Source: Blastocatellia bacterium
GTDB lineage: Bacteria; Acidobacteriota; Blastocatellia; UBA7656
DNA length: 64,000 nt
Assembly (NCBI GenBank): GCA_035275065.1
Contig: DATENM010000014.1
Coordinates: 151,178-215,177, forward strand
Reading direction: 5' to 3'
Position numbers and translations under genes: made by a program. The notes under the pieces were generated by a model. That model made no database searches, was not told the DNA's origin, and saw only the letters and a program-made list of their open reading frames with translations. Shown here piece by piece: positions 25,846 through 56,752 of this stretch (position 1 is the first letter of the stretch; each line of letters begins with the position of its first letter).

Positions 25846-25964
25846 GGAAGCAGGAGGCAGGAGGCAGGAGGCAGTTGCTGATCGCCAGGCATTATTTGCC
25901 TCTGGTCGTCGCGACAGTTTGCCTATCCTCTGGACTGCTTCCTGCCACCTGCTTCCTGCCTCCT
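25846..25964. repeat. Heptamer-arm palindromic element, (GCAGGAG)n / (CTCCTGC)n family, copy A
   Basis: The left arm is ggaagcaggaggcaggaggcaggaggcag and the right arm is ctgcttcctgccacctgcttcctgcctcct, with a loop of about 60 nt. It lies between convergent rpsU (+) and the HEAT gene (-). Confidence 0.8.
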
Positions 25965-28596: not shown

Positions 28597-28835
28597 GCAG
28601 GAAGTAGGAAGCAGGAGGCAGAAGGCAGGGAGCAGGAAGCAGTCCCGTCAGGGACGCCATGTTTATAGTGATAGATGACGAAAATGATGAAGCCCCGTAG
28701 GGGCGAAATGTTGACATCGCGCTCCTACGGAGCTTGCATCCTTTAGAGCGTCGGTGACTATACACATCGCGCTCCTAACGGAGCTTGCGGATCAACTGCC
28801 TCCTGCTTCCTGCCTCCTGCCTCCTGCTTTCTCGT
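28597..28835. repeat. Heptamer-arm palindromic element, (GCAGGAG)n family, copy B, with a ~150 bp structured core (MITE-like)
   Basis: The arms are gcaggaagtaggaagcaggaggcagaaggcagggagcaggaagcag and ctgcctcctgcttcctgcctcctgcctcctgctttctcg. The core contains repeated ...catcgcgctcctacggagcttg... units. The core is the reverse complement of the core of the element at 56457-56752. Confidence 0.8.
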
Positions 28836-30828
28836 TTCTCGCGCGCACGAGTTGGGTCACTGCCGTGTACAGCTCGTCGAGCGTGGCGCGGCGCTCTGCC
28901 GGCTGCTTGAAGCCGAGGGCCGTTAGCACCAGCTCATCAAGGCGGCGGCGGTCGAAGCGCCGCACTTCATCAAAGACCGAGCCAACAGGCCGGTCAGCCA
29001 TCTCGGTCAACGCCGCTTCGAGACGGCGTCGCAGCCCCGGCGGAATCGCTCGCGGGTCGGGAATCAACAACTGTGCGGCGACGGCGACATCGATATCGGC
29101 GATGGCCTGCGCGCCGGTCATCTGCCGGCAGGTCACTTCGGCGTAGTAGCGCGCCCAGGTCGAATTGAGCAGCGCCGCCAGCAACAGCTCCGAAACGCCC
29201 CGCCGCGGATAGACGCCATAGAGTTTCTTATCTTCAAAGACGCCGGCGCGATTCACCGCCACCAGCCAGCGCTCGCCGATCTTCGAGGGCAGGATGAGCG
29301 GCGCCGCCCGCCGGCTTCGCGTCACCGCGTACCAACGGTCGCGCGCCGCGCAGCTCGGGCGCAGATGATAGCCGGCGCGCTCGCCGCTGCGAATATAGGC
29401 GAGCGCCCGCGTGCCGCGCAGCTCATCTGCCGCCAACGCACAGTTGAAAAACAAGCGCCGCGAGCTGACCTCTGTAAGCCAGATCGCCGGAATCTCTTTC
29501 AACGAAAAGATCACCGGCACAAGAAAGCGCGCCTCAAGCTGATGACGAGCGCCCGCGGCATCTTGAACTTCGATGATCGAACGATCTGTAGCCTTCGCCA
29601 CTTTTCGCGCCCGATGGTTGGTCGGCGCGGCGATATCGCGCACCGGCTTGAGGTAGAAGAACTCATTCGCGCCGGTCGTCAGCCCGCGCCGCACCCGCGC
29701 GATGTCGTCTAAGGCCAGCAGCGCGCCTTGAGCCTTTTGCGCTCCCCCAGGTTTTTTCAGGTAGAAGAAATCGTTGGCGCCGGTCTTCACACCGAAACGG
29801 ACTTGCGCCAGTTCCGCCAGCCGGAGCAGCCGCGCGCCGCCGCGTTCGAGGATGCGAAAGAAAACATCATCGGCGCGCAGGTACTTGCCCCAGCCGTTCG
29901 CCGCGCTACTCGCGCGCGGGCCCGCATCCGTGTCGGTCAGCGCCCCCTGGCTAACCATGCGGAGGCGATAAGCGGCGGTGGTCGTCGCCACGTCGGCGCG
30001 CTCAATGGCGTGGGCAAACGCCTGCGTTGCGACAATGGAGTTCTGCCGTTTGTTCAAGATCGCGACGAGCGGCTGATTGAGTTGAACGAAGCGAACCGTG
30101 TTCGCGGCGCGCTGCTCGGCGTCCGGCTCGCGCTCAAGCACGGTGATGCTGGTGTTGACCGAAGCGTCAACGAAAAAGCTCTCCGCCGTTGACTCGATCA
30201 CCGCGATGACGCGGAAGTTATCGAGCAAGAAACGGCGCAGCGCCGCGCCGTAGCCGGCGTCGAGCCAGCTACTCGCCGTCAGAAAGACCAGCCTGCCGCC
30301 AGCTCTCAGGAAACGAATCGCCCGCGCGAAAAAGTAAACGTAAATATCCGAGCGGCCTGACCAGCGCGGCCAGATCACTTCGGGCGCAGATTGCCGATCA
30401 CTCAACAACCGGCGCTCGATGCGTCGCTTGTCGGGTGCGCCCATCACTTCCTGGCGAATGTAAGGCGGATTGCCGATGACCGCGTCGCAGCATTCCGGCA
30501 AACGCAACCTGTCGCTGAGTGGCGCGCCCGGCTCAAGGTCGAAGAAATCGGCCCGCGCCACCCGCGCGCCGGTCGCCGCCGCAAGCATGACCGCCTGCGC
30601 CGAGCGATCAATGCCGAAGACCCCGCGGGCAAGCTCGTGCGGCGACGCTTTCGTTGCAAGCTGCCGCTTGGCGTTGATGGCTTCCGCAAGCAAGCGCCCG
30701 TCGCCGCACGCCGGGTCAAAGACCCGATCAGCCGCCGAGCGCACGGCAAACGCCGCCAGCAGCCGCGCCACCTCGACCGGCGTGTAGTGTTGTCCGTAGC
30801 GGTGCCGCTCGTCTCTTGCCTTCGCCAT
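28792..30828 (-). CDS. N6-adenine DNA methyltransferase, Eco57I/TaqI-like (gamma-class, DPPY-type NPPY motif) with C-terminal target-recognition-like region
   Basis: GQHYTP...VFDPACGDGRLL (motif I) and VIGNPPYI (motif IV). A C-terminal region carries duplicated GVKTGANDFFYLKKP / GLTTGANEFFYLKPV motifs. No restriction endonuclease gene is adjacent. The last 12 codons (KAGGRRQEAGGS) are encoded by the heptamer-repeat arm of element B. Confidence 0.8.
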   Translation of the reverse strand: MAKARDERHRYGQHYTPVEVARLLAAFAVRSAADRVFDPACGDGRLLAEAINAKRQLATKASPHELARGVFGIDRSAQAVMLAAATGARVARADFFDLEPGAPLSDRLRLPECCDAVIGNPPYIRQEVMGAPDKRRIERRLLSDRQSAPEVIWPRWSGRSDIYVYFFARAIRFLRAGGRLVFLTASSWLDAGYGAALRRFLLDNFRVIAVIESTAESFFVDASVNTSITVLEREPDAEQRAANTVRFVQLNQPLVAILNKRQNSIVATQAFAHAIERADVATTTAAYRLRMVSQGALTDTDAGPRASSAANGWGKYLRADDVFFRILERGGARLLRLAELAQVRFGVKTGANDFFYLKKPGGAQKAQGALLALDDIARVRRGLTTGANEFFYLKPVRDIAAPTNHRARKVAKATDRSIIEVQDAAGARHQLEARFLVPVIFSLKEIPAIWLTEVSSRRLFFNCALAADELRGTRALAYIRSGERAGYHLRPSCAARDRWYAVTRSRRAAPLILPSKIGERWLVAVNRAGVFEDKKLYGVYPRRGVSELLLAALLNSTWARYYAEVTCRQMTGAQAIADIDVAVAAQLLIPDPRAIPPGLRRRLEAALTEMADRPVGSVFDEVRRFDRRRLDELVLTALGFKQPAERRATLDELYTAVTQLVRARNEKAGGRRQEAGGS

Positions 30829-30918
30829 CGTTATCCATCTTGCTGCGCGCCGCGCCGGTATCTACAATCAATTGAGGGATGACCGCCGGCGGTCTTAAGA
30901 GTAGCAACTGAAAAGCTG

Positions 30919-31947
30919 ATGACGAAAGACGCCATTCTAAACGAGCTGGAGAAACAGCCCTTCGTGCCGCACCCGCGGCTAAAGAACGGCCACGCGCAGA
31001 CGCTCGCCGGGGCGCTCATCCGTCGCCGCTTCAAGCGGGTGATCGAGAATTGCGAAGAGCGGCTTTTTGACATCGCGCCGGGCGGCCAGGTGCTCGGCCA
31101 CTGCTCGTGGCAGGCAGACCGCACCATTCGTCCGACGCTCGTGCTGGCCCACGGCATGGAAGGCTCGACCGAATCTCGCTATATGCTCGGCACCGCGGAA
31201 AAGGCTTTGGAAGCCGGTTTCAACGTCATCCGCATGAACGTCCGCAACTGCGGCGGCACAGAACACCTGACGCCGACGCTCTATCACGCGGGGCTGACCG
31301 AAGACCTCAAACAGATCATCAGTGAGCTGAGCGAGCGCGATGGCCTGAGCGAGATTTATCTTGCGGGCTTCTCGCTCGGCGGCAACATGGTGTTGAAGCT
31401 GGCGGGCGAATACGCCACCACTGCGCCGGCGGCGCTGCGCGGCGTCATCGCCGTATCGCCTTCGATAGACCTCGCCGCTTGCGCCGATGCCATCGAGATG
31501 CGCTCGAACCTGATCTATCATTTCAAATTCATCACCAGCCTGCGCAACCGCCTGCGCCGCAAAGCGCGGCTCTTTCCCGACCGCTACGACGCCTCGCGGC
31601 TGCGCGGCGTCTGGACGATTCGCCGCTTCGACGATTTGATTACCGCGCCGCACATGGGCTTTCAAAACGTCGCCAACTATTACGAGCGTGCCAGCGCCCT
31701 GCCCTTCGTTGAGCGCATCAGTGTGCCGACGCTGATCGTCAGCGCCAAGGATGACCCCTTCATCCCCTTCGCGCCGTTCGAGCGCCCCGAAGTCACCGCC
31801 AACCCCAACGTCGCGTTGATCGCCCCGGCGCATGGCGGCCACGTCGGCTTCGTCTCCGCCAACGGCGAAGGCGAGGGCCGCTTCTGGGCCGAAGCAACCA
31901 TCGTCAACTTTGCCCGGCTCATCAACGAAGGCCGCCGATCACGCTAA
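30919..31947 (+). CDS. Alpha/beta hydrolase, YheT/ABHD-like
   Basis: GFSLGGN (GxSxG nucleophile) and HG...G oxyanion region, with architecture typical of COG0429-type hydrolases. A terminator hairpin ttgtggga-aagcgca-tcccacaa follows. Confidence 0.7.
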   Translation: MTKDAILNELEKQPFVPHPRLKNGHAQTLAGALIRRRFKRVIENCEERLFDIAPGGQVLGHCSWQADRTIRPTLVLAHGMEGSTESRYMLGTAEKALEAGFNVIRMNVRNCGGTEHLTPTLYHAGLTEDLKQIISELSERDGLSEIYLAGFSLGGNMVLKLAGEYATTAPAALRGVIAVSPSIDLAACADAIEMRSNLIYHFKFITSLRNRLRRKARLFPDRYDASRLRGVWTIRRFDDLITAPHMGFQNVANYYERASALPFVERISVPTLIVSAKDDPFIPFAPFERPEVTANPNVALIAPAHGGHVGFVSANGEGEGRFWAEATIVNFARLINEGRRSR

Positions 31948-32240
31948 GCTCAACAACTCAAACCATCTTAACCTAAGCGGTTGTGGGAAAGCGCATCCCA
32001 CAAGCGAACAGGGAGCAGAGGCCGGGGCCGGAGGCCAGGGGCCTGTAGAAGTCGCACCCGGCGAGTCGCAATGGCCTCGGCTGATCAACCAGCGCGTGAA
32101 GTAACTTGTCTGAAACCTGGGGTTAAACAAATTAGCCGCGCGTTTGCAACCTTTCCTTCCTTCAGACCACTGACCATTACCCGCTGGCCCCTGCCCGCGT
32201 GGCACGCCGCTTGGCTATGTCTAGCGGAGTTTTACGAGCA

Positions 32241-33851
32241 ATGATGAATGTAGCTACAAGTGAAGAAGCGCGGCGCTGGCGGGCGCTGATTGCCGACGAC
32301 CAACCCGATGTGCTGGAAGCCCTGCGCCTGCTGCTGAAAGGCGAAGGCTTTCAGACCGACGCCGTGATGTCGCCGGCGGAAGTGATCGAAGCGTTGCAGG
32401 CGCATAATTACGATCTGCTGCTGATGGATTTGAATTATGCGCGTGACACGACCTCCGGGCAGGAAGGGTTAGACTTGCTGAACGCCGTGCGCGCGCTCGA
32501 CGACACCCTGCCCATCGTCGTGATGACGGCGTGGGGCAGTATCGAGCTGACGGTCGAAGCCATGCGGCGCGGCGTCCGCGATTTCGTCTTGAAGCCCTGG
32601 GAGAATGCGCGGCTGGTCAACACGCTGCGCGCCCAGGTCGAAGCCGGTCGCGCCCTGCGCCACAAAGAACATCTGAAGACCGAGCGCCGCCTGATCGCCC
32701 AGATCGTCCTCGAAGCCACCGACCAGCGCACCATGCTAGAGCTGATCGCCGGGCGTATTAGCCATGCGCTCGAACGCGCCACGGCGATCTTCACGCGCGC
32801 GCCACGCGACCATGGCTTTATGCGCGCCGCGGCTGCCGGAGACGCCAACGGGCTGGAGCACCTGGCCGGCATGGCCAACCGCGAATGGCATTTCGACGGC
32901 AGCCATCCGCTCAACCTCGCGGGCGTTGCGTTCGATGAAGCGCTGGCGGCGTATTCTTCTACTGAGCCGCCCGCTTTGATCGTGCCCGTCAAAGTCAATA
33001 ATGAAATTGTCGGCTTGCTCGGCGTCGTCGGCAAGCATGCGAATGACGGCTTTGACGCCGACGACATGAAATTTCTCGACGCCGCAGCAGAGCAGATCGC
33101 TTCGGGCATCAGTAACTTTCACCTCAAGAGCCAGGAGCGCGAGCTGGCCGAAGCGCGCTTGATTCAAGAGCGGCTGCTGCCGAAAGCGATCCCGCAGATC
33201 GAGGGCTGCGAGATCGCCGCCGCCTGGCGACCGGCGCGCACCGTGTCGGGCGATTATTTCGACGTGCTGAAGTTTGACGAGCGCTGCGCGGCAGTCTGTA
33301 TCGCCGACGTCAGCGGCAAGGGAATGCCGGCGGCGCTGCTGATGTCGAATGTGCAGGCGGCGGTCAAAGCCTTTGCCACGGGCGACCTCGCGCCCGCCGC
33401 CATCTGCGAGAAGCTGAATCGCGTCGTCGGCGGCAACATCGCTGACGACCGCTTTATCACTTTCTTTTATGGCTTGCTCGACACCGCGCGCAAGACGTTC
33501 ACTTATGCCAACGCCGGCCATTGTCAGCCGATGCTGGTGCGCGCCGCCGGTGACGTGCTGCGCCTCGACAAAGGCGGATTGATGCTCGGGCCGTTCCCCG
33601 GCTTGCCGTTTGAACAGGGCAAGATTCAGTTACAGGCGGGCGACCGCTTGTTGCTCTTTACCGATGGCATCACGGAAGCCGACAACGGCTGCAACGAAGA
33701 GTTTGACGAGGCCCGGCTGACTGACATCCTGATTAACAACCGCGCGTTTGCCGCTGCCCGCTTAGAGGAAGTCGTGATGGAGAAGGTGATGGAATTCTGT
33801 AAGGGCGATTTTCATGACGACGCGACGTTGCTGGTTCTAAGCTTTGACTGA
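32241..33851 (+). CDS. Response regulator with receiver, GAF and PP2C (SpoIIE-type) Ser/Thr phosphatase domains
   Basis: The receiver domain (ALIADDQPDVLEAL...LLLMDLNY...PIVVMTAWGS...DFVLKPW) is followed by a GAF-like middle region and a PP2C region (SGDYFDV...ADVSGKGMPAALLMS...FTDGITEA). The start is uncertain: GTG at 32199, ATG at 32217 or 32241. Confidence 0.8.
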   Translation: MMNVATSEEARRWRALIADDQPDVLEALRLLLKGEGFQTDAVMSPAEVIEALQAHNYDLLLMDLNYARDTTSGQEGLDLLNAVRALDDTLPIVVMTAWGSIELTVEAMRRGVRDFVLKPWENARLVNTLRAQVEAGRALRHKEHLKTERRLIAQIVLEATDQRTMLELIAGRISHALERATAIFTRAPRDHGFMRAAAAGDANGLEHLAGMANREWHFDGSHPLNLAGVAFDEALAAYSSTEPPALIVPVKVNNEIVGLLGVVGKHANDGFDADDMKFLDAAAEQIASGISNFHLKSQERELAEARLIQERLLPKAIPQIEGCEIAAAWRPARTVSGDYFDVLKFDERCAAVCIADVSGKGMPAALLMSNVQAAVKAFATGDLAPAAICEKLNRVVGGNIADDRFITFFYGLLDTARKTFTYANAGHCQPMLVRAAGDVLRLDKGGLMLGPFPGLPFEQGKIQLQAGDRLLLFTDGITEADNGCNEEFDEARLTDILINNRAFAAARLEEVVMEKVMEFCKGDFHDDATLLVLSFD

Positions 33852-33853
33852 GA

Positions 33854-33960
33854 GTGACAAGTGACAAGTGACAAGTGACAAGAGCGTGTCGGTGTTGCTA
33901 CTACGCTCTCCCACTCATTACTCATCACTCATCACCTCTTGTCACTTGTCACTTGTCACT
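33854..33960. repeat. Heptamer-arm palindromic element, (GTGACAA)4 / (TTGTCAC)3 family
   Basis: gtgacaagtgacaagtgacaagtgacaag ... cttgtcacttgtcacttgtcact. The loop itself contains (ACTCATC/T)3. It lies between the response-regulator stop and the first ADOP RBS (cggagag). Confidence 0.8.
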
Positions 33961-33972
33961 CGGAGAGTCCCT

Positions 33973-36420: not shown

Positions 36421-36524
36421 GTTTCTGGTTAGGGAAAGCGCCAGGGATGACAACCAGGAACCGCCAGCGGGCGAAGCCCATCTCCCGCTAAGGGAACCAG
36501 AAACCGCAAACCGGAGGTTTGCTG

Positions 36525-38948: not shown

Positions 38949-39064
38949 GGGGAACGAGAGGCCAGGGACTGGGGGCTAGAGCCAGAAGAACAGCTGCGAT
39001 ACTAGTCGTCTCATGGTGACTTCGGGCATTAGCCTCTAGTCGCTGGCCGCTACTGGAGATACTG

Positions 39065-41592
<2,528 letters not shown>

Positions 41593-41599
41593 AGGGTTT

Positions 41600-44164: not shown

Positions 44165-44165
44165 T

Positions 44166-44278
44166 CCAATTGCGGATTGCGGATTGGCGAACTTGTTCCT
44201 GAGTTTCATTTGATATTTGCGCCGTTAAGCTCTGAAGAAATCCGGGTTCCAGAATCCGCAATCCGCAATCCGCAATCG
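44166..44278. repeat. Heptamer-arm palindromic element, (GATTGCG)n / (CGCAATC)n family, copy 1
   Basis: ccaattgcggattgcggattggcg ... cagaatccgcaatccgcaatccgcaatcg. The loop shares cttgttcctgagtttcatttga and ttctgaaga.aatccg.ggttccag with the copy at 55421-55553. Confidence 0.8.
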
Positions 44279-44291
44279 AGAGAGGTGACGA

Positions 44292-46691
44292 ATGCAAACG
44301 ATGCTGCAAGACCTGCGATATGGGGCGCGCATGCTGCGCAAGAAGCCGGGCTTTACGCTGGTGGCGATCATTACACTGGCGCTTGGCATCGGCGCGAACA
44401 CGGCGATCTTCACGGTGATCTACGCGGTGCTGTTGCGTCCGCTGCCGTTTAACGAGCCCGACCGCGTGGTCTGGATGTGGGGCGCGGTGCGCGACCGCGT
44501 CAGCCGTGCCAGCGTCTCGCCGCTCGACTTCCTCGATTACCGCGCCCGCAATCAGAGCTTCGACGAATTCGCCGCCTCGATTTCGATTCCCATTTCATTC
44601 AACCTGACGGGCAGCGGCGAGCCCGAACGCCTGAGCGGCGCGGTGGTGACGACGAATTATTTCGCCGCGCTCGGCGTCAACCCGATGCTGGGGCGGGCCT
44701 TCATCAGCGAAGAAGAACAGGCGGGCCACGACCGCGTCATCATTCTCAGCCACGGCTTGTGGCAAAGGCGTTTCGGCGCCGACCCGGCGATCATTGATCG
44801 TACCCTCACCCTCGACGGCCAGAGCCTCACGGTCATCGGCGTTATGCCGCCGAAGATACGCTTCCCATACGACGCCGACCTGTGGCGGCCTATGAGCTTC
44901 GATGCGGCTCCCGAAATGAAGCAGCGACGCGCGCACTTCTTGCGTCCCCTCGGGCGGCTCAAGGCGGGCGTCACCGTGCAGCAGGCGCAGGCCGAGATAG
45001 ACACCATCGCCGGTCAATTAGAAGCGCAATACCCGGAGACCAATACCAAGTGGTCGATGTTGCTGGTGCCGCTTCAAGAGCGCATCGTTGGCGACATTCG
45101 TCCGACGCTCTGGGTGCTGCTCGGCGCGGTCGCCTTCGTGCTGCTGATCGCTTGTAGCAACGTGGCGAACCTGCTGCTGGCGCGCGCCTCGTCGCGCCAG
45201 AGAGAGATTGCCATCCGCCTGGCTATGGGCGCGAGTCGCTGGCGCATCGTCCGGCAGATGCTGACTGAGAGTCTCGTACTTGCGTTCGCCGGCGGCGTGC
45301 TTGGCATCTTGCTGGCGTGGTGGGGCGTTGACATTCTGCTCAGCTTCAGCGACGCGAGCATCCCGCGGGCCGCCGAGATCGGCGTTAACGCGACCGTGCT
45401 CGTCTTCACGCTGGCCGTTTCACTGATCACCGGCACCCTCTTCGGGTTGGTGCCTGCGTTGGGGGCCTCGCGGCCTGACCTGCACGACACGCTCAAAGAG
45501 GGCAGCCGCAGCGTCAGCGGCGCGCGCCACCGATTGCGCAGCCTGCTGGTGATTGCCGAAAGCGCCCTGGCGGTAGTGCTGCTGATCGGCGCCGGCTTGC
45601 TGATTAAGAGCTTCGTCAAGCTGCAACAGGTCGGCCCCGGCTTTGAAGCGGAGCACGTCTTGACGATGCGCCTCGACCTGCCGCGCAGCAAGTCCGCCGA
45701 GCAGGTGGCAGATTTCTATGACCAGCTACAACAGCGCGTCGCGGGGCTGGCCGGCGTCGAAGCGGTCGGCATGGTGTCAGAGCTGCCTTTGACCGGCCAG
45801 CCCAATGACGCGCCGTTCGCTATCGAAGGGCGCACCCTCGAAGCTCCCGACCAGAGGCCCAACGCCGATTTCCGCCGCGTCAATCACGACTACTTCCGGG
45901 CCTTGCGCATCCCGCTGCTCAAGGGGCGACAGTTCACCGAGCAAGAAGCGCGTCAGGGCGCGGGCGTGGCGATCATCAGTGAGCGGCTGGCGCAGCAGTA
46001 CTTCCCCGATGAAGAACCGCTAGGCAAGTATCTAGCGTTTGACTTCAACAAGCAGCTGCGATTTGAAATCGTCGGCATCGTCGGCGACGTGCGCCATCGG
46101 GCGCTGGCGCAAGACACCTACCCGGCGTTGTACGTGCCGTCGCTTTCGATCCCGTGGACGAATCTGGTCATCCGCTCGGCGAATGATCCGGCAAACCTTG
46201 CCGCCGCCGTGCGCAAAGAGGTCGGCGCGCTCGATGCGCAGCAACCGATTGCGGCGATCAAGCCGATGGCGCAATGGCTCTCGGAATCGGTCGCGCAGCC
46301 GCGCTTCCGCACCCTCTTGCTCGGTGTCTTTGCGGCCATCGCGCTGCTGCTTTCGGTGATCGGCATCTACGGCGTGATGAGTTATGTGGTCGCGCAGCGG
46401 ACACGCGAGGTCGGCATTCGCATGGCGCTCGGCGCCAGCCGCCGCGACGTGCTGAGACTGGTCGTCGGACAGGGTATGAAGCTGGCGATTGCGGGCGTCG
46501 CCCTCGGCCTGGGGGCCGCCTATGGCCTGACGCGATTGCTGGCGAGCCTGCTCTACGAAGTGAGCGCCACAGACCCCGCGACCTTTATCGCCATCGCCTT
46601 GCTGCTGGCAGGAGTGGCTCTGGCAGCCTGTTTCGTGCCGGCTCGCCGCGCCACGAAGGTAGACCCGATGGTGGCGCTGCGCTACGAATAG
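44292..46691 (+). CDS. ADOP-family permease, paralog 5
   Basis: N-terminus [26 protein letters not shown]...; C-terminus ...[17 protein letters not shown]. Confidence 0.85.
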   Translation: MQTMLQDLRYGARMLRKKPGFTLVAIITLALGIGANTAIFTVIYAVLLRPLPFNEPDRVVWMWGAVRDRVSRASVSPLDFLDYRARNQSFDEFAASISIPISFNLTGSGEPERLSGAVVTTNYFAALGVNPMLGRAFISEEEQAGHDRVIILSHGLWQRRFGADPAIIDRTLTLDGQSLTVIGVMPPKIRFPYDADLWRPMSFDAAPEMKQRRAHFLRPLGRLKAGVTVQQAQAEIDTIAGQLEAQYPETNTKWSMLLVPLQERIVGDIRPTLWVLLGAVAFVLLIACSNVANLLLARASSRQREIAIRLAMGASRWRIVRQMLTESLVLAFAGGVLGILLAWWGVDILLSFSDASIPRAAEIGVNATVLVFTLAVSLITGTLFGLVPALGASRPDLHDTLKEGSRSVSGARHRLRSLLVIAESALAVVLLIGAGLLIKSFVKLQQVGPGFEAEHVLTMRLDLPRSKSAEQVADFYDQLQQRVAGLAGVEAVGMVSELPLTGQPNDAPFAIEGRTLEAPDQRPNADFRRVNHDYFRALRIPLLKGRQFTEQEARQGAGVAIISERLAQQYFPDEEPLGKYLAFDFNKQLRFEIVGIVGDVRHRALAQDTYPALYVPSLSIPWTNLVIRSANDPANLAAAVRKEVGALDAQQPIAAIKPMAQWLSESVAQPRFRTLLLGVFAAIALLLSVIGIYGVMSYVVAQRTREVGIRMALGASRRDVLRLVVGQGMKLAIAGVALGLGAAYGLTRLLASLLYEVSATDPATFIAIALLLAGVALAACFVPARRATKVDPMVALRYE

Positions 46692-46806
46692 AAGTCAGGA
46701 GTCAGGAGTCAGAAGTCAGAATAAAAGCGGCGGCGGACAAGCGTACTCGCTGCCGCCGACTTCCCTTTCCATTCCGACTCCTGACTCCTGACTCCTGGCT
46801 CCCTGG
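46691..46806. repeat. (GGAGTCA)n palindromic element, copy 2
   Basis: gaagtcaggagtcaggagtcagaagtcagaat-aaaagcggcggcgg...ccgacttccctttccattc-cgactcctgactcctgactcctggctccctgg, then GGAGG and the ATG at 46814. Confidence 0.8.
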
Positions 46807-46813
46807 AGGATTT

Positions 46814-49222
46814 ATGCAAACACTGCTGCAAGACATTCGCTACGGGGCGCGCATGCTGATGCGCAACCCGACCTTCACCGCCGTCGCGGTCGTCGCCCTG
46901 GCTTTAGGTATCGGCGCCAACGCGGCGATCTTCTCGGTCGTCAACGCCGTGTTGCTCCGTCCGCTGCCCTATGCGGAGCCGGATCGCTTGATGATGATCC
47001 GCGAGACCAAGTTGCCGCAGTTCCCCGAATTCTCTGTCGCGCCCGGCAACTTTCTCGAATGGCAGAAACAGAACACCGTCTTCGAGCGCCTGGTGGCAAT
47101 CAACAGTAGCGCCTTCAACCTGATCGGCGCGGGCGAGCCTGAGCGGCTGCAAGGGCAGCGCGTCAGCGACGGTTTCTTCGCTATGCTCGGCGCCAAGCCG
47201 GCGCTCGGTCGTGACTTTCTCGCCGAAGAAGACCAGCCCGGACACAACCAGGTCGTGATCATCAGTCATGGCTTATGGCAGCGGCGCTTCGGCGGCGACC
47301 CGAATGTCCTGGGCCAGGCCATCACGCTCAATGGATTGAGCTACACCATCATCGGCGTGATGCCGCCGGACTTTCGCTATGGTGGTCAGACGACTGAGTT
47401 GTGGACGCCTGTGGGGTTCACCGCCGATCAAGCGCAGCAGCACGGCGCGCATTATATCGGCGTCGTCGGGCGGCTCAAGCCGGGTGTCACGGTCGAGCAG
47501 GCGCGCACCGAGATGGTCGCCATCGCCGCACGGCTGTCCGAACAATTTCCCGGCCCGCTCACGGGTTGGAGCGTCAGGGTTGAGCCGATGCTCGACTACA
47601 CCGTCCGCAGCATCAAGCTGGCGCTCTATGTATTGTTGGGCGCGGTCGGCTTCGTCCTGTTGATCGCCTGCGCCAACGTCGCCAACTTGCTGATGGCGCG
47701 CGCCACCTCGCGGCAGAAAGAGATCGCCGTGCGCACAGCGCTTGGCGCGAGCCGCTGGCGCATCGTCCGCCAGTTGCTGACCGAAAGCGTGCTGCTCGCC
47801 GTGATCGGCGGCGTGATCGGCATGGTGCTCGCCGTCTGGGGCAAAGACCTGCTGCTGTCGCTTGCGCCCGAAGACCTGCCGCGCGTGCGCGACGCGGCGC
47901 TCGACGGCTGGGTGCTCGCCTTCACCGGCGGCATCACGCTGCTGACCGGCTTGATCTTCGGAGTGGTGCCGGCGTTGCAAGCGTCAAAGCCGAACCTCAA
48001 CGAGACGTTGAAAGACGCCGGGCGCGGCTCAACCGAAGGCGGTCACCGCCACTTGATTCGCAGCCTGCTGGTCATCCTTGAAGTCGCGACGGCGCTGGTG
48101 CTGCTGGTCGGCGCGGGCTTACTGATCAAGAGCTTTCTGCGCTTGCAGAATGTCGACCCCGGTTTCAATCCCGACAACGCCTTGATGGTGAAGATCGCGC
48201 TGCCGGGCAAGAAATACAACGAGCCGGATCAGCAGGCCGCTTTCTATAATCAGCTGCTCGAAAAAGTTTCGCAGTTGCCCGGCGTCGAGGCCGCCGGCGC
48301 GGCGGTCGTCCTGCCGCTCGACAACGACTTCCTGCTCGGCTTCGAGATCGAAGGCCGCCCGCCGCTGCCCGCCGATCAGGATCAGAGCACGAACTACTAC
48401 TCGGTGACGCCAGGTTACTTTAAAGCGATGGGCATCCCGCTGCGCCGTGGGCGACTGTTCGACGACCGCGACCGCAAGAACGCGACGCGCGTCATCATCA
48501 TCAACGAGGAGATGGCGCGACGACTCTTCCCCGACGAAGACCCGCTCGGCAAGCGCATCCATGTGACGATGGGCGAGAAGCTTTATCGTGAAGTCGTCGG
48601 CGTCGTCGGCGACGTCAAGCAGAATGGGTTGGATCAGAAGACGCCGCTTGAAACCTACGAGCCGTTCGCGCAACAGCCGTTCTCATCAATGTCGCTGGTC
48701 GTCCGCGCCGCCGGCGACCCGACCGCGTTGAGCAATGCCATTCGCGGTGAAGTATTGAGCATTGACAAAGACCAGCCGGTCTCAAGCATCAAGCCGCTCA
48801 CCGAACTGGTGCGCTCGTCCATCGCGCAGCAGCGTTTCGCGATGTTGTTGCTGGGCGTCTTTGCGGCGGTGGCGATGTTGTTGGCGGTGGTCGGTATTTA
48901 TGGCGTGATGTCGTATTCGGTGACGCAACGCACGCACGAGATCGGCATCCGCATGGCCCTGGGCGCGAGTCCGCGCAACGTGCTGCGGCTGGTCGTCGGG
49001 CACGGGATGCGGCTGGCATTGATCGGCGTGGCGCTCGGATTGAGCATCGCCTTCCTGGTGACGCGCATCATGGCGAGCTTGCTATTCGGCGTCAGCGCCA
49101 CCGACCTGATGACCTTCACCGTCTTTTCCGTATCGTTGACCGCCGTGGCGCTGGTCGCCTGCCTGGTGCCGGCTCGCCGCGCCTTGAAGGTAGACCCGAT
49201 GGTGGCGCTGCGCTACGAATAG
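46814..49222 (+). CDS. ADOP-family permease, paralog 6
   Basis: True start [26 protein letters not shown], with GGAGG 5 nt upstream. The ORF-track N-terminal extension to 46274 runs through the intergenic palindrome and the 3' end of paralog 5 and is rejected. Confidence 0.85.
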   Translation: MQTLLQDIRYGARMLMRNPTFTAVAVVALALGIGANAAIFSVVNAVLLRPLPYAEPDRLMMIRETKLPQFPEFSVAPGNFLEWQKQNTVFERLVAINSSAFNLIGAGEPERLQGQRVSDGFFAMLGAKPALGRDFLAEEDQPGHNQVVIISHGLWQRRFGGDPNVLGQAITLNGLSYTIIGVMPPDFRYGGQTTELWTPVGFTADQAQQHGAHYIGVVGRLKPGVTVEQARTEMVAIAARLSEQFPGPLTGWSVRVEPMLDYTVRSIKLALYVLLGAVGFVLLIACANVANLLMARATSRQKEIAVRTALGASRWRIVRQLLTESVLLAVIGGVIGMVLAVWGKDLLLSLAPEDLPRVRDAALDGWVLAFTGGITLLTGLIFGVVPALQASKPNLNETLKDAGRGSTEGGHRHLIRSLLVILEVATALVLLVGAGLLIKSFLRLQNVDPGFNPDNALMVKIALPGKKYNEPDQQAAFYNQLLEKVSQLPGVEAAGAAVVLPLDNDFLLGFEIEGRPPLPADQDQSTNYYSVTPGYFKAMGIPLRRGRLFDDRDRKNATRVIIINEEMARRLFPDEDPLGKRIHVTMGEKLYREVVGVVGDVKQNGLDQKTPLETYEPFAQQPFSSMSLVVRAAGDPTALSNAIRGEVLSIDKDQPVSSIKPLTELVRSSIAQQRFAMLLLGVFAAVAMLLAVVGIYGVMSYSVTQRTHEIGIRMALGASPRNVLRLVVGHGMRLALIGVALGLSIAFLVTRIMASLLFGVSATDLMTFTVFSVSLTAVALVACLVPARRALKVDPMVALRYE

Positions 49223-49307
49223 AAGTCAGGAGCCAGGAGTCAGAAGTCAGAATAAAAGCGGCGGCGATAGCCGACTTCCCTTTCCATTCTGACTCCTGAC
49301 TCCCTGG
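49222..49307. repeat. (GGAGTCA)n palindromic element, copy 3
   Basis: gaagtcaggagccaggagtcagaagtcagaataaaagcggcggcgatagccgacttccctttccattctgactcctgactccctgg. Confidence 0.8.
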
Positions 49308-49314
49308 AGGATTT

Positions 49315-51774: not shown

Positions 51775-51796
51775 CGCGCTTTCTAGGAGGCTCGTT

Positions 51797-52957
51797 ATGA
51801 TGAGCGACACGACAACGCATCGCCGCGCCCGCCTGGCGCTGGGCCTCGTGACCGTCGCCCTGCTCATGGGCTGGGCAAGCGGGCGCGCCGGCGCCCAGGC
51901 CGACAAGCCAGCCGAGCAGATGAGCAAGAACATCCAGGTGTTCAAGGGGCTGCCCGCTTCGCAGCTCATGACCGTCATGCAATTCATGCGGGCGTCGCTC
52001 GGCGTCCGCTGCGATTACTGCCACATCGCCGAGAACGGCAAGTACTGGATGGACGACAAGCCCGCCAAGCAGACGGCGCGGCGCATGATTCAGATGGTCC
52101 GCGAGATCAACCGGGCCAACTTCGATGGCCGGGCTGTCGTCACATGTAATTCTTGCCACAGGGGGCAGACGACGCCGGTGGCGGTGCCAGACATCAGCCA
52201 GGGGGCATTCGCCAACACCACGCGGGCCGACCCCGGTCCCGCACGGCCTTCGCCGCTGCCGACCGTGGAGGCGCTGCTCGGCAAATACCGCCAGGCCCTT
52301 GCCGGCAAGGCGGCGGTTGAGAGCATCCAGACGCGGGTCAGCAAGATCACCTGGATGAGGCCGAAGCTCGTGAACGTCGGCACGCCGAGCGCGGCGTCGA
52401 TTCCGCGCGCCGAGCCCTGGGCGATGGAGCTTTATCAGAAGGCCCCGGACAAGTATCTCGCGGTAATCACGTCGCCGAACGGCGTGATCTACCAGGGCTT
52501 CAACGGCACCACCGGCTGGATCAAGACGCCCGAGGGGCAGCGCGAGCTGAACGCCCAGGAGTTGGCCCGCGTGCGCCGCCTGGCCGATCTGTTCAGCGGC
52601 TTGCGGCTGCGGGAGCAATTCGCCAGTGTGGCCGTGACCGGCAAGCAGAGCATCGACGGGCGCGACACCTACGTAGTCGAGGCGGTGGCCGCCGACGGGC
52701 ACGGCGAGAAGTTTTTCTTCGACGCCCGGACCGGCCTGCTGCGGCGACGGCTCGTGCTGACCCCGGCCCCGTTCGGCCAGGACCCCGAGCAGACCGACTA
52801 CGAGGATTACCGCGAAGTCGGCGGCGTCAGGCTGCCGTTCAACGTCGTCTTCTCCTATCTGGACGACAACCACTATGGCACGGCACGCCGGTACACCGAG
52901 GTCAAACACAACCTTCCGTTGGACGACGCTCAGTTCGACCCACCAGTCAGGAAATAA
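51797..52957 (+). CDS. Periplasmic c-type cytochrome (two CxxCH motifs; PRC-type cytochrome-c-like N-domain) fused to a C-terminal beta-rich, possibly LolA-like domain
   Basis: AGGAGG lies 6 nt before the ATG at 51797. An in-frame alternative ATG at 51767 would overlap the paralog-7 stop. There is a signal peptide (RRARLALGLVTVALLMGWASGRAGAQA). The heme motifs are CDYCH and CNSCH. The NIQVFKGLPASQLMTVMQFMRASLGVRCDYCH string matches my recollection of the photosynthetic-reaction-centre cytochrome-c family signature. Confidence 0.6.
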   Translation: MMSDTTTHRRARLALGLVTVALLMGWASGRAGAQADKPAEQMSKNIQVFKGLPASQLMTVMQFMRASLGVRCDYCHIAENGKYWMDDKPAKQTARRMIQMVREINRANFDGRAVVTCNSCHRGQTTPVAVPDISQGAFANTTRADPGPARPSPLPTVEALLGKYRQALAGKAAVESIQTRVSKITWMRPKLVNVGTPSAASIPRAEPWAMELYQKAPDKYLAVITSPNGVIYQGFNGTTGWIKTPEGQRELNAQELARVRRLADLFSGLRLREQFASVAVTGKQSIDGRDTYVVEAVAADGHGEKFFFDARTGLLRRRLVLTPAPFGQDPEQTDYEDYREVGGVRLPFNVVFSYLDDNHYGTARRYTEVKHNLPLDDAQFDPPVRK

Positions 52958-52974
52958 GGAGGCTAGATCACGTC

Positions 52975-55422
52975 ATGGATAACTTATGGAAAGACCTGCG
53001 CTATGGAATGCGCATGCTGATGAACAAGCCGGGCTTCGCCGCGGTGGCGATCATTACGCTGGCGTTGGGGATCGGCGCCAACACGGCGATCTTCTCCGTC
53101 GTCAACGCCGTGCTGTTGCAGCCGCTGCCGTACCGCGAGCCGGACAAGCTGGTGCGCGTCTACACAGAGTTCCCGACCATGGGGCTGCGGAAGTTCTGGA
53201 TGTCTGTGCCCGAGTTCACCGACATCCGCAACGAAGCGCAGTCGTGGGAGAGCCTCGGTGCCTGGTCGAGCGGCGGCGTCAACGTCGCCAGCGCCAGCGA
53301 GCCGATCCGCGTCACCTCGGCCTCGATCACGCGCGGGCTGATTGACGTGCTCGGCGTGCAGCCGGCCATGGGCCGCAACTTCACCGAAGAAGAGGACCGC
53401 AGGGGCGGGCCGCGCGCCGCGTTGATCGCCGACGGCCTGTGGCGCAGCGCTTTCGGCGCAGACCCCGACATTATCGGTAAAGAGATTCAGATCAACGCCC
53501 AGCCGTACACGGTCATCGGCGTCATGCCGCGCAGCTTCAACTTCCCTGCCGGCAGCAACGACCCGGCGCAGGTCTGGGTGTCGTTCCAGTTCGACCCGAC
53601 CACCCCCGGCAACCGCGCCGGCCACTTCTTGAACGTCATTGGCCGGCTCAAGCCCGACGCCACGCTCGACCAGGCGCGCTCCGAGTTGAGCTCGCTGATG
53701 GCCGGCTGGCGGCAAGAGAACCGCGCCCGCCACCTGATGAATGCCGAGAACCACCCGGTGCTGATGTTCCCGCTGCACGAAGACGTCGTCGGCGCGGCGC
53801 GGCCCGCCGTCTTGATGCTGTTGGGCGCGGTGGCGTTCGTCTTGTTGATCGCCTGCGTCAACGTCGCCAACCTGTTGCTGGCGCGGGCCGAGGCGCGACG
53901 CCGCGAGTTCGCCATCCGCCTGGCGATGGGCGCTGGCCGCACGCGCCTGCTGCGCCAGTTCCTCGCCGAAGGGCTGATCCTCGTCGTGCTCGGCGCAGGG
54001 GCCGGCTTGATCCTCGGCAAGCTCGGACTCAGCCTGGTGATCGCTGCGGCGCCCGACAGCGTGCCGCGCACTAGCGAGATCAGCATCAACCTGCCGGTGC
54101 TGGCTTTCACGCTGGGGCTATCGGTGCTGTCGGTGCTGGTTTTTGCCATGGCGCCGCTGGTGCAGATGCGCGAGCGCGACCTGGCGACCTGGCTGCACGG
54201 CTCGGGCAAGGGCTCAGGCAGCGGCGGCCAGCGTTTGCGCAAGGCGCTGGTGATCGCCGAGATTGCCCTGGCCGTCGTGCCGATGATCGGCTCGGGGCTG
54301 ATGGTGCGGGCCTTCTGGAAGCTGCGTCAGGTTGACATGGGGTTCGAGCCGCGCGGCGTCATCGCCTTCAACCTGGCGCTGCCGCGAAGCCGCTACCAGA
54401 ACCCCGACCTGCTGAAGTTCGGCGAGACGCTCGAAACCAAGCTGACAGCGCTGCCGGGCGTCCAGGCCGCGGCCATCGCCGGCGAGTTGCCGCCCGTCCG
54501 CCCCATAGACGCCAACGACACACAGATCGAAGGCTTCCAGCCGACGCCGGACGGCCCGGCGCAGAACGTCGACTTCTGGAACATCATCGGCAAGGATTAC
54601 TTTAAGGCGATGGGGATTCGCACCATCGAGGGCCGCACCTTCGAGCCGATGGACATGGGCGACAAGGCGCAGAAGGTCGTGGTTATCAACCAGGCGCTGG
54701 CGCGGCGCTTCTGGCCCGGTGAGAGCCCCATCGGACGGCGTCTCAACCCCCAGGTCGCTGCCGAGCCGACGTGGTTCACCATCGTCGGCATCGTCGAAGA
54801 CACCAAGAATCTGGGCACGGACAAGCCGGCGGGCACAGAGCTTTACATCCTCGAACACCAGACGGTCGAGTTCGGAATCAACAGCGTCAAGAGCTTCGTC
54901 GTGCGCACAGATGGCACGCCGGGCGCGACCATGTCGGGCATCCGCTCGGCGGTCGCCGAGATGGACCCGAGCATTCCGATCTACAGCATGAAGACCATGG
55001 GCGATATCGTCGGCGATTCGCTGGTCAAGCCGCGTTTCCTGTCGCTGCTGCTCGGGGCGTTTTCGCTGATCGCCATCGCGCTGGCGGCCATCGGCATCTA
55101 CGGCGTCATGGCCTACGCGGTGACGCAGCGCACGCAAGAGATCGGCTTGCGCGTGGCGCTCGGGGCGACGACGCGCAACGTGCTGGGGATGGTGCTGGGC
55201 CAGGGCTTGAGGATGACGGTGATCGGCCTGGCGGTGGGCCTGGGCGGCGCCTTCTTCCTGACGCGGGTGATGGCCAGCCTGCTGTTTGAAGTCAGCACCA
55301 CTGACCCGCTGACCTTCGTGGTGGTCGGGGTGGGGCTTACGGCGGTCGGCTTGCTGGCCTGCTTCGTTCCGGCACGCCGCGCCGCCCGCGTTGACCCGAT
55401 GATCGCGCTCAGATACGAATGA
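52975..55422 (+). CDS. ADOP-family permease, paralog 8
   Basis: AAGGAGG lies before the ATG. N-terminus MDNLWKDLRYGMRMLMNKPGFAAVAII...; C-terminus ...[17 protein letters not shown]. Confidence 0.85.
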   Translation: MDNLWKDLRYGMRMLMNKPGFAAVAIITLALGIGANTAIFSVVNAVLLQPLPYREPDKLVRVYTEFPTMGLRKFWMSVPEFTDIRNEAQSWESLGAWSSGGVNVASASEPIRVTSASITRGLIDVLGVQPAMGRNFTEEEDRRGGPRAALIADGLWRSAFGADPDIIGKEIQINAQPYTVIGVMPRSFNFPAGSNDPAQVWVSFQFDPTTPGNRAGHFLNVIGRLKPDATLDQARSELSSLMAGWRQENRARHLMNAENHPVLMFPLHEDVVGAARPAVLMLLGAVAFVLLIACVNVANLLLARAEARRREFAIRLAMGAGRTRLLRQFLAEGLILVVLGAGAGLILGKLGLSLVIAAAPDSVPRTSEISINLPVLAFTLGLSVLSVLVFAMAPLVQMRERDLATWLHGSGKGSGSGGQRLRKALVIAEIALAVVPMIGSGLMVRAFWKLRQVDMGFEPRGVIAFNLALPRSRYQNPDLLKFGETLETKLTALPGVQAAAIAGELPPVRPIDANDTQIEGFQPTPDGPAQNVDFWNIIGKDYFKAMGIRTIEGRTFEPMDMGDKAQKVVVINQALARRFWPGESPIGRRLNPQVAAEPTWFTIVGIVEDTKNLGTDKPAGTELYILEHQTVEFGINSVKSFVVRTDGTPGATMSGIRSAVAEMDPSIPIYSMKTMGDIVGDSLVKPRFLSLLLGAFSLIAIALAAIGIYGVMAYAVTQRTQEIGLRVALGATTRNVLGMVLGQGLRMTVIGLAVGLGGAFFLTRVMASLLFEVSTTDPLTFVVVGVGLTAVGLLACFVPARRAARVDPMIALRYE

Positions 55423-55553
55423 TTCGAATGCGGATTGCGGATTGCGGATTGCGGATTATCGAGCTTGTTCCTGAGTTTCATTTGAACCCTCGCAGGCTCA
55501 AGTTCTGAAGAGAATCCGCGGTTCCAGAATCCGCAATCCGCAATCCGCAATTC
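55421..55553. repeat. (GATTGCG)n palindromic element, copy 2
   Basis: gattcgaatgcggattgcggattgcggattgcggatt ... cagaatccgcaatccgcaatccgcaattc, then AAGGAG and the ATG at 55566. Confidence 0.8.
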
Positions 55554-55565
55554 AAGGAGATAATT

Positions 55566-56456
55566 ATGCTTTTAACGATCTGCATGCTCTTTTTCGGCTT
55601 CTCGCCATCCGCTTCAACCGATGAATGGTCGAGAAGCTATCAGGTACAAGGCACGCCGAAAGTCCACGTCGAAACCGGCGACGCGAACATTCATGTGACG
55701 GTCGGCGAAGGCCGCACGGTCGCCGCCCGCATTACGACCGAAGGCTGGAAGATCGGCGGCGACGGCATCACGATCAGCGACCACCAGACCGGCGATCAGG
55801 TCGAGATCGAGGTGCGCTTCCCACGCCATATGTTTCACATCGACCTGGGCCACAGGCGCGTCGATATCGAGATCAAGGTGCCGCGCGAGGCCAGCCTCGA
55901 CCTGCACACAGGCGATGGCAACGTGGATGCGCAGGGCGTGCGCGGGTCAATCGTCTTGCGCAGCGGCGACGGCAACCTCAACCTATCGAACCTGGACGGA
56001 ACACTGCGCGCCGAGACCGGCGATGGCAACATCGATATGCGCGACGTTCGTGGCGACCTGACCCTGCACACCGGCGACGGGCGAATCGATGTGAGCGGCA
56101 TAGACGGCTCGTTGCGCGCTGAAACCGGCGACGGGCGCATCCACGTCAATGGGCGCTTTGACCTGCTCGATGTGAAGACCGGCGACGGCGGCATCAACGC
56201 CGAAGCGCTCGACGGCTCGAAGCTGGACGCCAACTGGCGGTTGAGCAGCGGCGATGGTGATTTGACGGTGCGCGTGCCAGCGACAATGGCTGCCGATGTC
56301 GAATTACACACCAGCGACGGGCACATTGATCTGGCGATGCCGGTCACGGTCATGGGCCGCACGGGAACACGCGAGCTGCACGGACGCATCAACGGCGGCG
56401 GCAAATTGCTCTCGTTGAGAACCGGCGATGGCTCGATCCGCCTGGAGCAGAAGTAA
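55566..56456 (+). CDS. DUF4097-type beta-helix repeat protein (LiaG/putative adhesin-like)
   Basis: Signal-like N-terminus. There are about 12 tandem ~19-21 aa repeats, for example TGDGNIDMRDVRGDLTLH-TGDGRIDVSGIDGSLRAE. Confidence 0.7.
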   Translation: MLLTICMLFFGFSPSASTDEWSRSYQVQGTPKVHVETGDANIHVTVGEGRTVAARITTEGWKIGGDGITISDHQTGDQVEIEVRFPRHMFHIDLGHRRVDIEIKVPREASLDLHTGDGNVDAQGVRGSIVLRSGDGNLNLSNLDGTLRAETGDGNIDMRDVRGDLTLHTGDGRIDVSGIDGSLRAETGDGRIHVNGRFDLLDVKTGDGGINAEALDGSKLDANWRLSSGDGDLTVRVPATMAADVELHTSDGHIDLAMPVTVMGRTGTRELHGRINGGGKLLSLRTGDGSIRLEQK

Positions 56457-56752
56457 GCAGGAGGCAGGAGGCAGGAGGCAGGAGGCAGTGCGTCGCCAAG
56501 CTCCGTAGGAGCGTGATGTTTATAGAGCGTGTCTGAAAAGACAGCTCCGTTAGGAGCGTGATGTTTATAGTCACCGGGTCGGTGTATTCATCAAGCTCCG
56601 TAGGAGCGCAATGTCAACATTCCGCCCCTACGGAGCTTGTTTCTTTTTTATGCCTGTAACTATTAACATCGCGTCCCTACGGGACTCTCTCCTGCCTCCT
56701 GCTTCCTGCCTCCTGCTTCCTGCCTCCTGCCTCCTGCTCTCTCCCCGCCCGC
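56457..56752. repeat. Heptamer-arm palindromic element, (GCAGGAG)n family, copy C, with a ~200 bp core that is the reverse complement of copy B's core
   Basis: The arms are gcaggaggcaggaggcaggaggcaggaggcag and ctcctgcctcctgcttcctgcctcctgcttcctgcctcctgcctcctgctctctcc. The core has 4 repeats of agctccgt(t)aggagcg[tc][ga]atgt. For example, C aatgttgacattgcgctcctacggagcttg (revcomp) aligns with B aaatgttgacatcgcgctcctacggagcttg. Confidence 0.8.

Follow-up and report, generated by a model that had tools for sequence, protein, structure and literature searches.

A probable Y1 transposon remnant nested within heptamer-repeat hairpins in the genome of a Blastocatellia bacterium

The stretch of 64,000 nt (64 kb) of the genome of a Blastocatellia bacterium analyzed here (assembly GCA_035275065.1, contig DATENM010000014.1, positions 151,178 to 215,177), which we call the window, contains two compound elements, A (~28597-28829) and B (56454-56738), that have the same build: a GCAGGAG array, a short linker, a cluster of ~27-nt units and a CTCCTGC array. 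The reading that we favor, with a probability of about 0.8, is that each element is a ~143-base remnant of a Y1 transposon, its ends fused and its gene lost, nested within an unrelated heptamer hairpin. The core belongs with the repetitive extragenic palindromic (REP)-, REPIN- or TIRtron-like elements that are associated with Y1 transposases, and is a new member of that family. The original prediction, made from the sequence of the window, had suggested either a non-autonomous mobile element with the heptamer repeats at its termini or a small RNA (sRNA) gene. The core is not an sRNA gene, and nor is it a miniature inverted-repeat transposable element (MITE) bounded by heptamer repeats.

The unit of the core is a 5-bp hairpin, GCTCC-GTA-GGAGC, followed by a tail of sequence G-NN-AT-N-TTT-R-TAG, ~27 nt in all. 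Units in the window vary, with loops of GTA or GTTA, stems of GTCCC/GGGAC and GCCCC/GGGGC, and a 3′ side that begins G-NN-AT-G-T. Two units facing two inverted units make up the module, which we denote F f r R; the outer units F and R carry the full tail, and the inner units f and r a divergent one. In A the module is 143 nt in length with spacings of 50/41/51, and in B it is 142 nt with spacings of 51/41/49. The tails of f and r in A meet at ATGTCAACAT, and the spacers between units show little conservation in the two cores. Searching the 64-kb window with the unit probe GCTCCGTAGGAGCGYRATGT (≤3 mismatches) gave five occurrences, all within A and B, against 0.01 expected, and a scan for the hairpin plus tail found four units in A, four in B and none elsewhere. 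B has five units in total, the fifth (r) having a mismatched stem and being picked up by the other unit searches; A has four. The arm probe GCAGGAGGCAGGAG, which covers two repeats, matches the window 28 times at ≤2 mismatches, against 0.73 expected by chance. Both unit clusters of the window are intergenic.

The two cores are related to each other. The reverse complement of A (28640-28795) can be aligned with B over 149 nt (80.5% identity). A high score is also obtained on the same strand (106, compared with 167 for the reverse complement) because the module is a quasi-palindrome. Since the flanking genes lie on the minus strand at A and on the plus strand at B, the two modules are oriented alike with respect to local transcription. 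Folded as single strands, the whole elements are each predicted to form one long hairpin, with −171.7 kcal/mol (z = −16.05) for B and −141.5 kcal/mol (z = −12.95) for A. The original prediction had located the heptamer arms accurately, and had recognized both the modular hairpin units and the opposite orientation of the copies on the chromosome. It had described a near-identical core of ~200 bp, whereas the shared block is ~145-150 nt and the cores are only related; it had counted three to four units of ~28 nt where there are four and five of ~27 nt; and the opposite orientation does not extend to local transcription.

How widespread is the module? One genome per species was scanned with the pattern GCTCC-N3-4-GGAGCG-NN-AT-N-TTT-R-TAG, and at least 120 stretches from many phyla matched; loci are numbered here with the prefix L, and the counts of modules refer to the matches listed. 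Among these are Pyrinomonadaceae, Blastocatellia and other Acidobacteriota, Verrucomicrobiota, Desulfobacterota, Planctomycetota, Poribacteria, Ignavibacteria and others, with the Bacteroidota represented by Flavobacterium, Algoriphagus and Saprospiraceae. A scan of viral contigs for the unit gave no matches. The commonest cluster signature is FfrR, and there are at least 35 strict FfrR modules of 136-193 nt, distributed over Acidobacteriota, Verrucomicrobiota, Bacteroidota, Poribacteria and other groups, together with many partial clusters. The geometry is well maintained: F to f is 48-54 nt and r to R 48-53 nt in 34 of 35 strict modules, with 70 nt for both in L093. Alignment of 25 modules shows that the hairpins and tails are conserved and the spacers are not. 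A different arrangement is seen in a Flavobacterium metagenome-assembled genome (MAG), where five F units follow one another head to tail in L057 (611-830), with a period of 50 nt.

The unit hairpin is under selection as a structure. When sites were anchored on the tail alone, a perfect 5-bp stem was present at 218 of 255 sites, compared with none in a shifted control, and 53 of those 218 are compensatory stem variants. In the 25 aligned modules 98.6% of cells are paired, a percentage that is biased upward because at least 4/5 stem pairs were demanded when the modules were selected; the tail-anchored test is free of that bias. The alignment contains 36 double-change cells, a number reached by none of 500 shuffles, and slid controls gave no more than 4.

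At some loci the units bracket a gene. In L003 they enclose an open reading frame (ORF) of 155 amino acids whose product matches Pfam Y1_Tnp PF01797 with 80.8 bits (cutoff 23) and NCBIfam IS200/IS605 NF033573 with 59.2 bits (cutoff 55); against the RAYT model NF047646 (REP_Tyr_transpos) it scores 32.3 bits, below the cutoff of 80. Using tblastn, Y1 transposase homologues with 52-74% identity were found in 9 of the 120 listed loci, and the transposase genes bracketed by units, at 12 loci in all, encode 151-159 amino acids. Six of the nine run F, ~24 nt, f, gene, r, R, with f abutting the start codon and r the stop codon. At the remaining three (L021, L044 and L046) at least one of the four units either was not detected or points another way. 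The association was also approached from the opposite direction, by choosing homologues on protein similarity alone from at least 8000 clusters and then inspecting their contigs for units. At the P0073 loci F lies at −44, with f overlapping the start codon and r the stop codon, and the two ends of the P0073 locus form an inverted repeat of ~80 nt with 81% identity. Two others had partial sets: L190 (P0116) has r alone, and L191 (P0098) just F and f.

All 12 of 12 proteins carry the HUH motif [DN]HxH, together with WQ and Y[A-Z]{3}Q[A-Z]{2}HH. The tyrosine motif YIxNQxxHH is that of class 1, subclass 1.2, so that the proteins lie outside the RAYT/TnpA-REP clade with its class 2 motifs. The subclass 1.2 signature of TnpA-Y1 proteins (DHxH, WQ, YIxNQxxHH) was described by Quentin et al. 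2018 (PMC6006769). Gene-bearing and gene-less forms occur side by side in L074, the Acidimicrobiia MAG, where five tandem gene-less F f r R modules with a period of ~213 nt (5426-6623) lie beside an intact Y1 gene. This segment also holds a duplicated 3′ end of the upstream gene.

Since the units bracket the Y1 gene as F f-gene-r R, the cores in the window are gene-less miniature derivatives (REPIN- or MITE-like). On this comparison of sequences the real inverted ends of the element are the F+f and r+R halves, and the module is made from the two ~70-80-nt inverted ends of a small Y1/HUH transposon-like unit, joined after loss of the gene.

The outer arms are a separate intergenic hairpin, similar to the short tandemly repeated repetitive (STRR) sequences, that is typical of this Blastocatellia lineage. 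The arms consist of tandem 7-bp repeats, are intergenic and are able to form a hairpin between genes, as do STRRs. In the window there are 11 inverted heptamer-array hairpins (Table 1), built from five heptamers (GCAGGAG, TCAGGAG, AGTGACA, TGCGGAT and AAGTAAA), and 9 of the 11 are without units. All start within ~6 nt of the stop codon of the upstream gene, and most end just 5′ of the ribosome-binding site of the next gene, 8 of 11 being ~10 nt before the start codon. The arms are independent of the module. Arrays adjoin 6 of 37 acidobacterial unit clusters and none of the 78 clusters from other phyla, leaving 31/37 and 78/78, respectively, without arms. The notion that heptamer arrays are a general companion of the module was rejected, given their absence from all 78 clusters outside the Acidobacteria. 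The same compound form recurs in L110, with arms of (CAGGAGA)n, and modules are paired with quite different heptamers in L110, L004, L022 and L174. No direct repeat of 4 nt or more was found at the ends of arms or modules, apart from module-end matches inside hairpins.

Orthologous sites in relatives were recovered through the flanking proteins, and several of these comparisons rest on metagenome assemblies. They show that units are gained, lost and inverted between relatives, and that the arm hairpin is conserved in structure and position while its heptamer sequence turns over fast, in concert on both arms. Of 19 relatives (64-99% amino-acid identity) compared at the site of B, 3′ of the DUF4097 gene, about 11 have hairpins of other heptamers (TGTCCTT, TGCCGAT, GGTTTCT, GGTTCGG and others) without units. 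The closest relative at this site is the metagenome contig L122, with flanks that are 91-98% identical; it has kept the left linker and the R unit, and F, F and f are absent. When L122 (1500-1660) is compared with the window (56457-56738), every repeat of both arms reads GCAGTAG/CTACTGC in place of GCAGGAG/CTCCTGC, which is a concerted, compensatory change. Elsewhere in the same contig (~490-600) the TGCGGAT hairpin of the window (55423-55553) has been wholly replaced by a GGGACTA-type hairpin, from stop codon to ribosome-binding site. The rpsU site has CAGTTNN, GTTCCTG or other heptamers in contigs whose rpsU is 93-99% identical. The loop of the rpsU hairpin appears inverted between L170 and L166, on the weak evidence of 17/23 nt.

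At the site of A a homologous module is present in L174 (~7930-8100), where the flanking gene is 87.6% identical. It is inverted relative to the flanking genes, the alignment with the A module (28642-28784) giving 134 versus 116 identities in the two orientations, and the identity is ~81%. Its array is different and is found on one side only, as (CTGACCA)n. L175 has a GCTAGGG-type hairpin and L178 a minimal hairpin, both with no module. A and B are old copies.

The unit-free GCAGGAG-armed hairpin following rpsU had been put forward as a third family member (25846-25964), with the arms but an unrelated loop, as if an empty site. This has been borne out: its loop scores no higher against the cores than the shuffle means, with no detectable similarity, and the hairpin is an unoccupied form of the same hairpin type, as are the other hairpins that have arms and no core. 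An alternative view of the loop as a decayed module was rejected on the same lack of similarity.

The broader interpretation in the original prediction must be divided. The core does derive from a non-autonomous mobile element, but the heptamer arms are not its terminal inverted repeats, since other heptamers, usually free of units, occupy the orthologous sites and most unit clusters have no arms at all. Nor do arms and core always go together, the arms standing alone at most of the window hairpins and most orthologous sites. In place of the transposase recognizing GCAGGAG that had been envisaged, the associated enzyme is an IS200-like Y1/HUH protein flanked by the hairpin units, and the target-site duplications that had been anticipated were not found and are not expected for this class of enzyme. 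The suggested sRNA gene is at odds with the variable presence of the module among relatives and its inversion in L174, and with the Rfam result given below.

How might such units move? By analogy with IS608 TnpA and E. coli TnpA-REP (PMC3597680, PMC3333891, PMC3479197), a transposase encoded elsewhere in the genome would bind the hairpins on single-stranded DNA, and would cut and rejoin the strand beside them. Such action would move, duplicate or delete units without a target-site duplication, and the cleavage site probably lies in the conserved tail or is guided by it. The arms would form a stable intercistronic or 3′-end stem in the transcript. If extruded in the DNA, the arm hairpin would expose a single-stranded loop as a favorable landing site for the module, and recombination between the arms could flip the interior.

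A number of points weigh against our reading of the core as a Y1 transposon remnant inserted in a heptamer hairpin. A search of ~73 kb of the source contig, made up of the 64-kb window and a further 9.3 kb beside it, found no Y1 transposase gene, and none of the nine transposase-bearing loci is acidobacterial, so that a partner enzyme in the source genome is hypothetical. Quentin et al. 2018 (PMC6006769) ascribe neither REP sequences nor IS200-type end hairpins to subclass 1.2. The scan demanded the GCTCC/GGAGC unit, and the conservation of sequence across phyla is therefore due in part to the selection of loci. A and B are only ~80% alike, and the A module has apparently been inherited vertically since the split from L174 (~81% identity compared with 87.6% for the flank), so that there is no sign of recent transposition. 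Finally, the preference of modules for hairpin loops is statistically insecure, because ~4% of the bases of the window lie within 80 nt of an array, and arrays and modules are both confined to intergenic DNA.

Could arm and core together be a single mobile element, either with the heptamer arrays as terminal repeats or as a hairpin cassette spreading by recombination or gene conversion? GCAGGAG-armed hairpins do follow three unrelated genes (rpsU, the methylase and DUF4097) within 31 kb. Furthermore, several relatives carry CAGTT-type or other heptamers after an almost identical rpsU, and the 55426 hairpin is wholly replaced in L122 between coding flanks that are 95-98% identical; hairpin cassettes therefore do get exchanged. 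Yet the arm ends lack a target-site duplication of ≥4 nt, the 25845-25962 hairpin has the arms in common with A and B and not the loop, modules elsewhere have either no arms (all 78 clusters outside the Acidobacteria) or other heptamers (the four loci named above), and the conserved inverted ends beside the transposase gene are the hairpin units themselves. We therefore regard a single compound element as improbable. A core that is a small structured RNA gene or a cis-regulatory RNA, with nested hairpins selected at the level of RNA, is in our view the most improbable of the explanations considered, even though the long hairpins into which the two elements fold are very stable (z = −16 and −13), the unit hairpins covary, the two modules share an orientation relative to the flanking genes and the elements are almost certainly co-transcribed with their neighbors. 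Covariation of the hairpins would fit recognition of a DNA hairpin equally well, and the argument from shared orientation was dropped given the inverted L174 orthologue. At other loci a transposase gene is bracketed by these units in inverted orientation, the spacers between units are unconserved, and the module is absent from L175, L178 and most site-B orthologues. A scan of the whole window against Rfam 15 at the gathering threshold gave no matches. Permissive Rfam scans gave nothing more than miRNA-precursor-like matches, which are generic long hairpins, and the partial Acido-Lenti-1 match discussed below.

The remaining possibility concerns the enzyme. The units might be the cis-sites of a domesticated host Y1 nuclease, used in processing hairpins in single-stranded DNA or in structuring the genome, with modules kept because they are useful. 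Identity among the proteins is 52-74% across phyla and the unit is nearly invariant base for base, subclass 1.2 is described in PMC6006769 as having few gene copies (1.7) and no insertion sequence (IS) properties, and the A module has persisted while the lineages of the window and L174 diverged by ~12%. Set against this, close relatives differ in the presence of modules and in unit number in a way that looks neutral, there is no known host phenotype or conserved position in the genome, and the apparent conservation arises partly from the way that loci were selected; we judge domestication to be very unlikely as the explanation of A and B. A related and wider proposal, which we make tentatively and hold to be doubtful, is that subclass 1.2 Y1 proteins stand at the center of a pan-bacterial system whose cis-sites are REP-like. 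Four-hairpin modules that are nearly base-identical across phyla would suggest a domesticated nuclease for hairpins in single-stranded DNA rather than an ordinary IS. In Blastocatellia the system may prefer, for landing or processing, the extruded loops of the fast-evolving heptamer hairpins anchored at stop codons. A stronger version, with the enzyme renewing the heptamer arrays as well, is disfavored by the absence of arrays beside modules in other phyla.

Taking the core as a transposon remnant, separation of arms and core avoids the mis-annotation of a compound structure as a single MITE or sRNA. The identification of the core gives a cognate family of repeats to a Y1 subclass that has been described in the literature as repeat-free, with F, f, r and R as defined DNA substrates. 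STRR-like heptamer hairpins are also pervasive in Blastocatellia, anchored at stop codons and with arms that evolve in concert.

The repeat also has consequences for annotation of proteins. Two ORFs, at 28577-28765 (-) and 56611-56910 (+), had been said to begin MSTFRPYGA. The sequence is present in both, and has its source in the central f/r unit junction, but in A it is internal to the listed ORF, which starts at an upstream GTG. These ORFs, continuing through a heptamer arm, are almost certainly annotation artefacts of the repeat, which explains why spurious 'hypothetical proteins' of the MSTFRPYGA... type recur in genomes of soil bacteria. At A the N6-methylase ORF 28792..30828(-) runs through the (GCAGGAG)n arm, and one arm of A is therefore translated; the C-terminus reads ...EKAGGRRQEAGGS, and the TGA stop (28792-28794) lies in the linker between the arm and the module. 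In relatives the length of the orthologous protein varies from 630 to 682 amino acids.

Table 1. Positions of the heptamer hairpins in the window and of the component parts of elements A and B.
Feature	Position	Strand	Remarks
Heptamer hairpins 1-6	21998-22083, 25845-25962, 28597-28829, 33852-33962, 41507-41590, 44165-44280		
Heptamer hairpins 7-11	46690-46802, 49222-49305, 55426-55553, 56455-56738, 59321-59447		
Unit-free GCAGGAG-armed hairpin	25845..25962	+	Between rpsU stop (25837-25839) and stop of convergent HEAT-repeat gene
A, transcription-distal arm	28597..28641	-	Degenerate heptamers, minus-strand reading CTTCCTG/CTCCCTG...; pairs with 28796-28829
A core	28642..28784	-	143-nt four-hairpin module, from unit scan, spacings and module alignment
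A units, minus-strand order	F 28757-28784, f 28707-28733, r 28692-28718, R 28642-28669	-	
A, transcription-proximal arm	28796..28829	-	(GCAGGAG)n on minus strand; inside 3′ end of N6-methylase ORF 28792..30828(-)
B left arm	56454..56488	+	TAA stop of DUF4097 gene, then directly (GCAGGAG)4 GCAG
B additional F unit	56500..56526	+	Full unit, upstream of module; cluster signature FFfrR
B core	56544..56685	+	142-nt F f r R module
B core units	F 56544-56571, f 56595-56621, r 56609-56636, R 56659-56685	+	
B right arm	56689..56738	+	(CTCCTGC/CTTCCTG) x7; pairs with 56457-56488

Two further features of the heptamer hairpins and their surroundings may be recorded. The loop of the AGTGACA-armed hairpin (33913-33940) holds a second, unpaired heptamer array (ACTCATT/ACTCATC). 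From ~33970 to 61855 there are about ten tandem ORFs of ~800 amino acids with common N-termini and C-termini (...RYE*), mostly separated by heptamer hairpins; the member that was tested, 56923..59322, matches MacB_PCD and FtsX.

Among known systems, the closest in organization are the REP sequences and bacterial interspersed mosaic elements with TnpA-REP (RAYT), the REPINs and the REPtrons (PMC3333891, PMC3479197, PMC8266576). These also have a Y1/HUH gene flanked by inverted short hairpin repeats, an arrangement that we find in the related gene-bearing loci and not in the window. They share with the present family the dispersal of the same repeats through intergenic DNA as inverted pairs and clusters, location right after stop codons, and the lack of target-site duplications. 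Our partner protein differs in having the class 1 Y---Q--HH motif and not the class 2 RAYT motif. The repeats differ too, for here the stem has only 5 bp and precedes a 13-nt 3′ tail that is conserved and ends in (G/A)TAG, where the canonical REP has a GTAG foot directly 5′ of a long palindrome. Moreover, each end has two hairpins ~50 nt apart, and the unit is common to many phyla. A full-text search of the literature found no paper with the unit sequence, and nothing on REP/RAYT in Acidobacteria or following up subclass 1.2 beyond PMC6006769 and PMC3733652.

The TIRtrons (TIRYT) of Di Nocera et al. 2013 (PMC3733652) resemble these loci in being tyrosine-transposase genes with flanking terminal inverted repeats, some of them double palindromic, and their repeats also occur elsewhere in the genome as single, dimeric or grouped copies, with Acidobacteria among the hosts. 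Their conserved motif GGGGWSAS does not match our unit, in a comparison made at the level of that motif. The proteins are most like TnpA-Y1 subclass 1.2 (PMC6006769), with a DH[IV]H-type HUH motif, WQ, a YIKNQKEHH-type tyrosine motif and a length of ~148-155 amino acids. Unlike that subclass as described, the genes here are bracketed by F f ... r R units, and while subclass 1.2 is mostly found in Cyanobacteria and Bacteroidetes, our loci are from Verrucomicrobiota, Bacteroidota, an Acidimicrobiia MAG and others. With IS200/IS605 and its miniature derivatives the family shares the Y1 transposase, subterminal hairpins, the lack of target-site duplication and a miniature form arising through loss of the gene. 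However, the ends of IS200/IS605 are asymmetric, with hairpins on one strand and no inverted repeat, whereas the ends here are ~80-nt inverted repeats with opposed units. Like a MITE, the module is small and non-coding, with terminal inverted repeats in common with the gene-bearing form (F+f joined to r+R), but there is no target-site duplication at each copy.

For the arms the parallels lie elsewhere. To our knowledge such heptamer hairpins are otherwise present in cyanobacteria and Xanthomonas, and we found no report in the literature of heptamer-repeat hairpins in Acidobacteria. Small mobile repeats nested inside heptamer arrays are said to have been described by Elhai et al. in 2008. Stabilization of transcripts or translational coupling has been suggested for the 7-bp STRR hairpins of cyanobacteria (PMC2670836), and the heptamer repeats of Xanthomonas and Nostoc exhibit slippage-driven variability between close relatives (PMC4692102). 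Like these, the 7-bp repeats of the window lie in tandem in intergenic DNA, can form hairpins between genes that are transcribed together, and vary in length and sequence among relatives; they differ in the host (Acidobacteriota, Blastocatellia), the inverted paired arms, the anchoring at stop codons and the use of many heptamers per genome.

There is one further likeness, to the Acido-Lenti-1 motif of Rfam (RF01687), which is also found in Acidobacteria. The 3′ half of that motif is built as CUA, ~8 nt, C and then a 5-bp hairpin with a 3-nt loop, resembling our unit, but the motif has an extra 8-bp 5′ hairpin and a different sequence. Identity with Acido-Lenti-1 was rejected after comparison with a true member, the window units scoring 12.3 and 13.5 bits where the gathering score is 37, and on one hairpin only. 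That member is in L101 (4525-4571, 40.2 bits), and its 3′ half is built like the unit here. The Acido-Lenti-1 'sRNA' motif might also be a REP-type DNA repeat.

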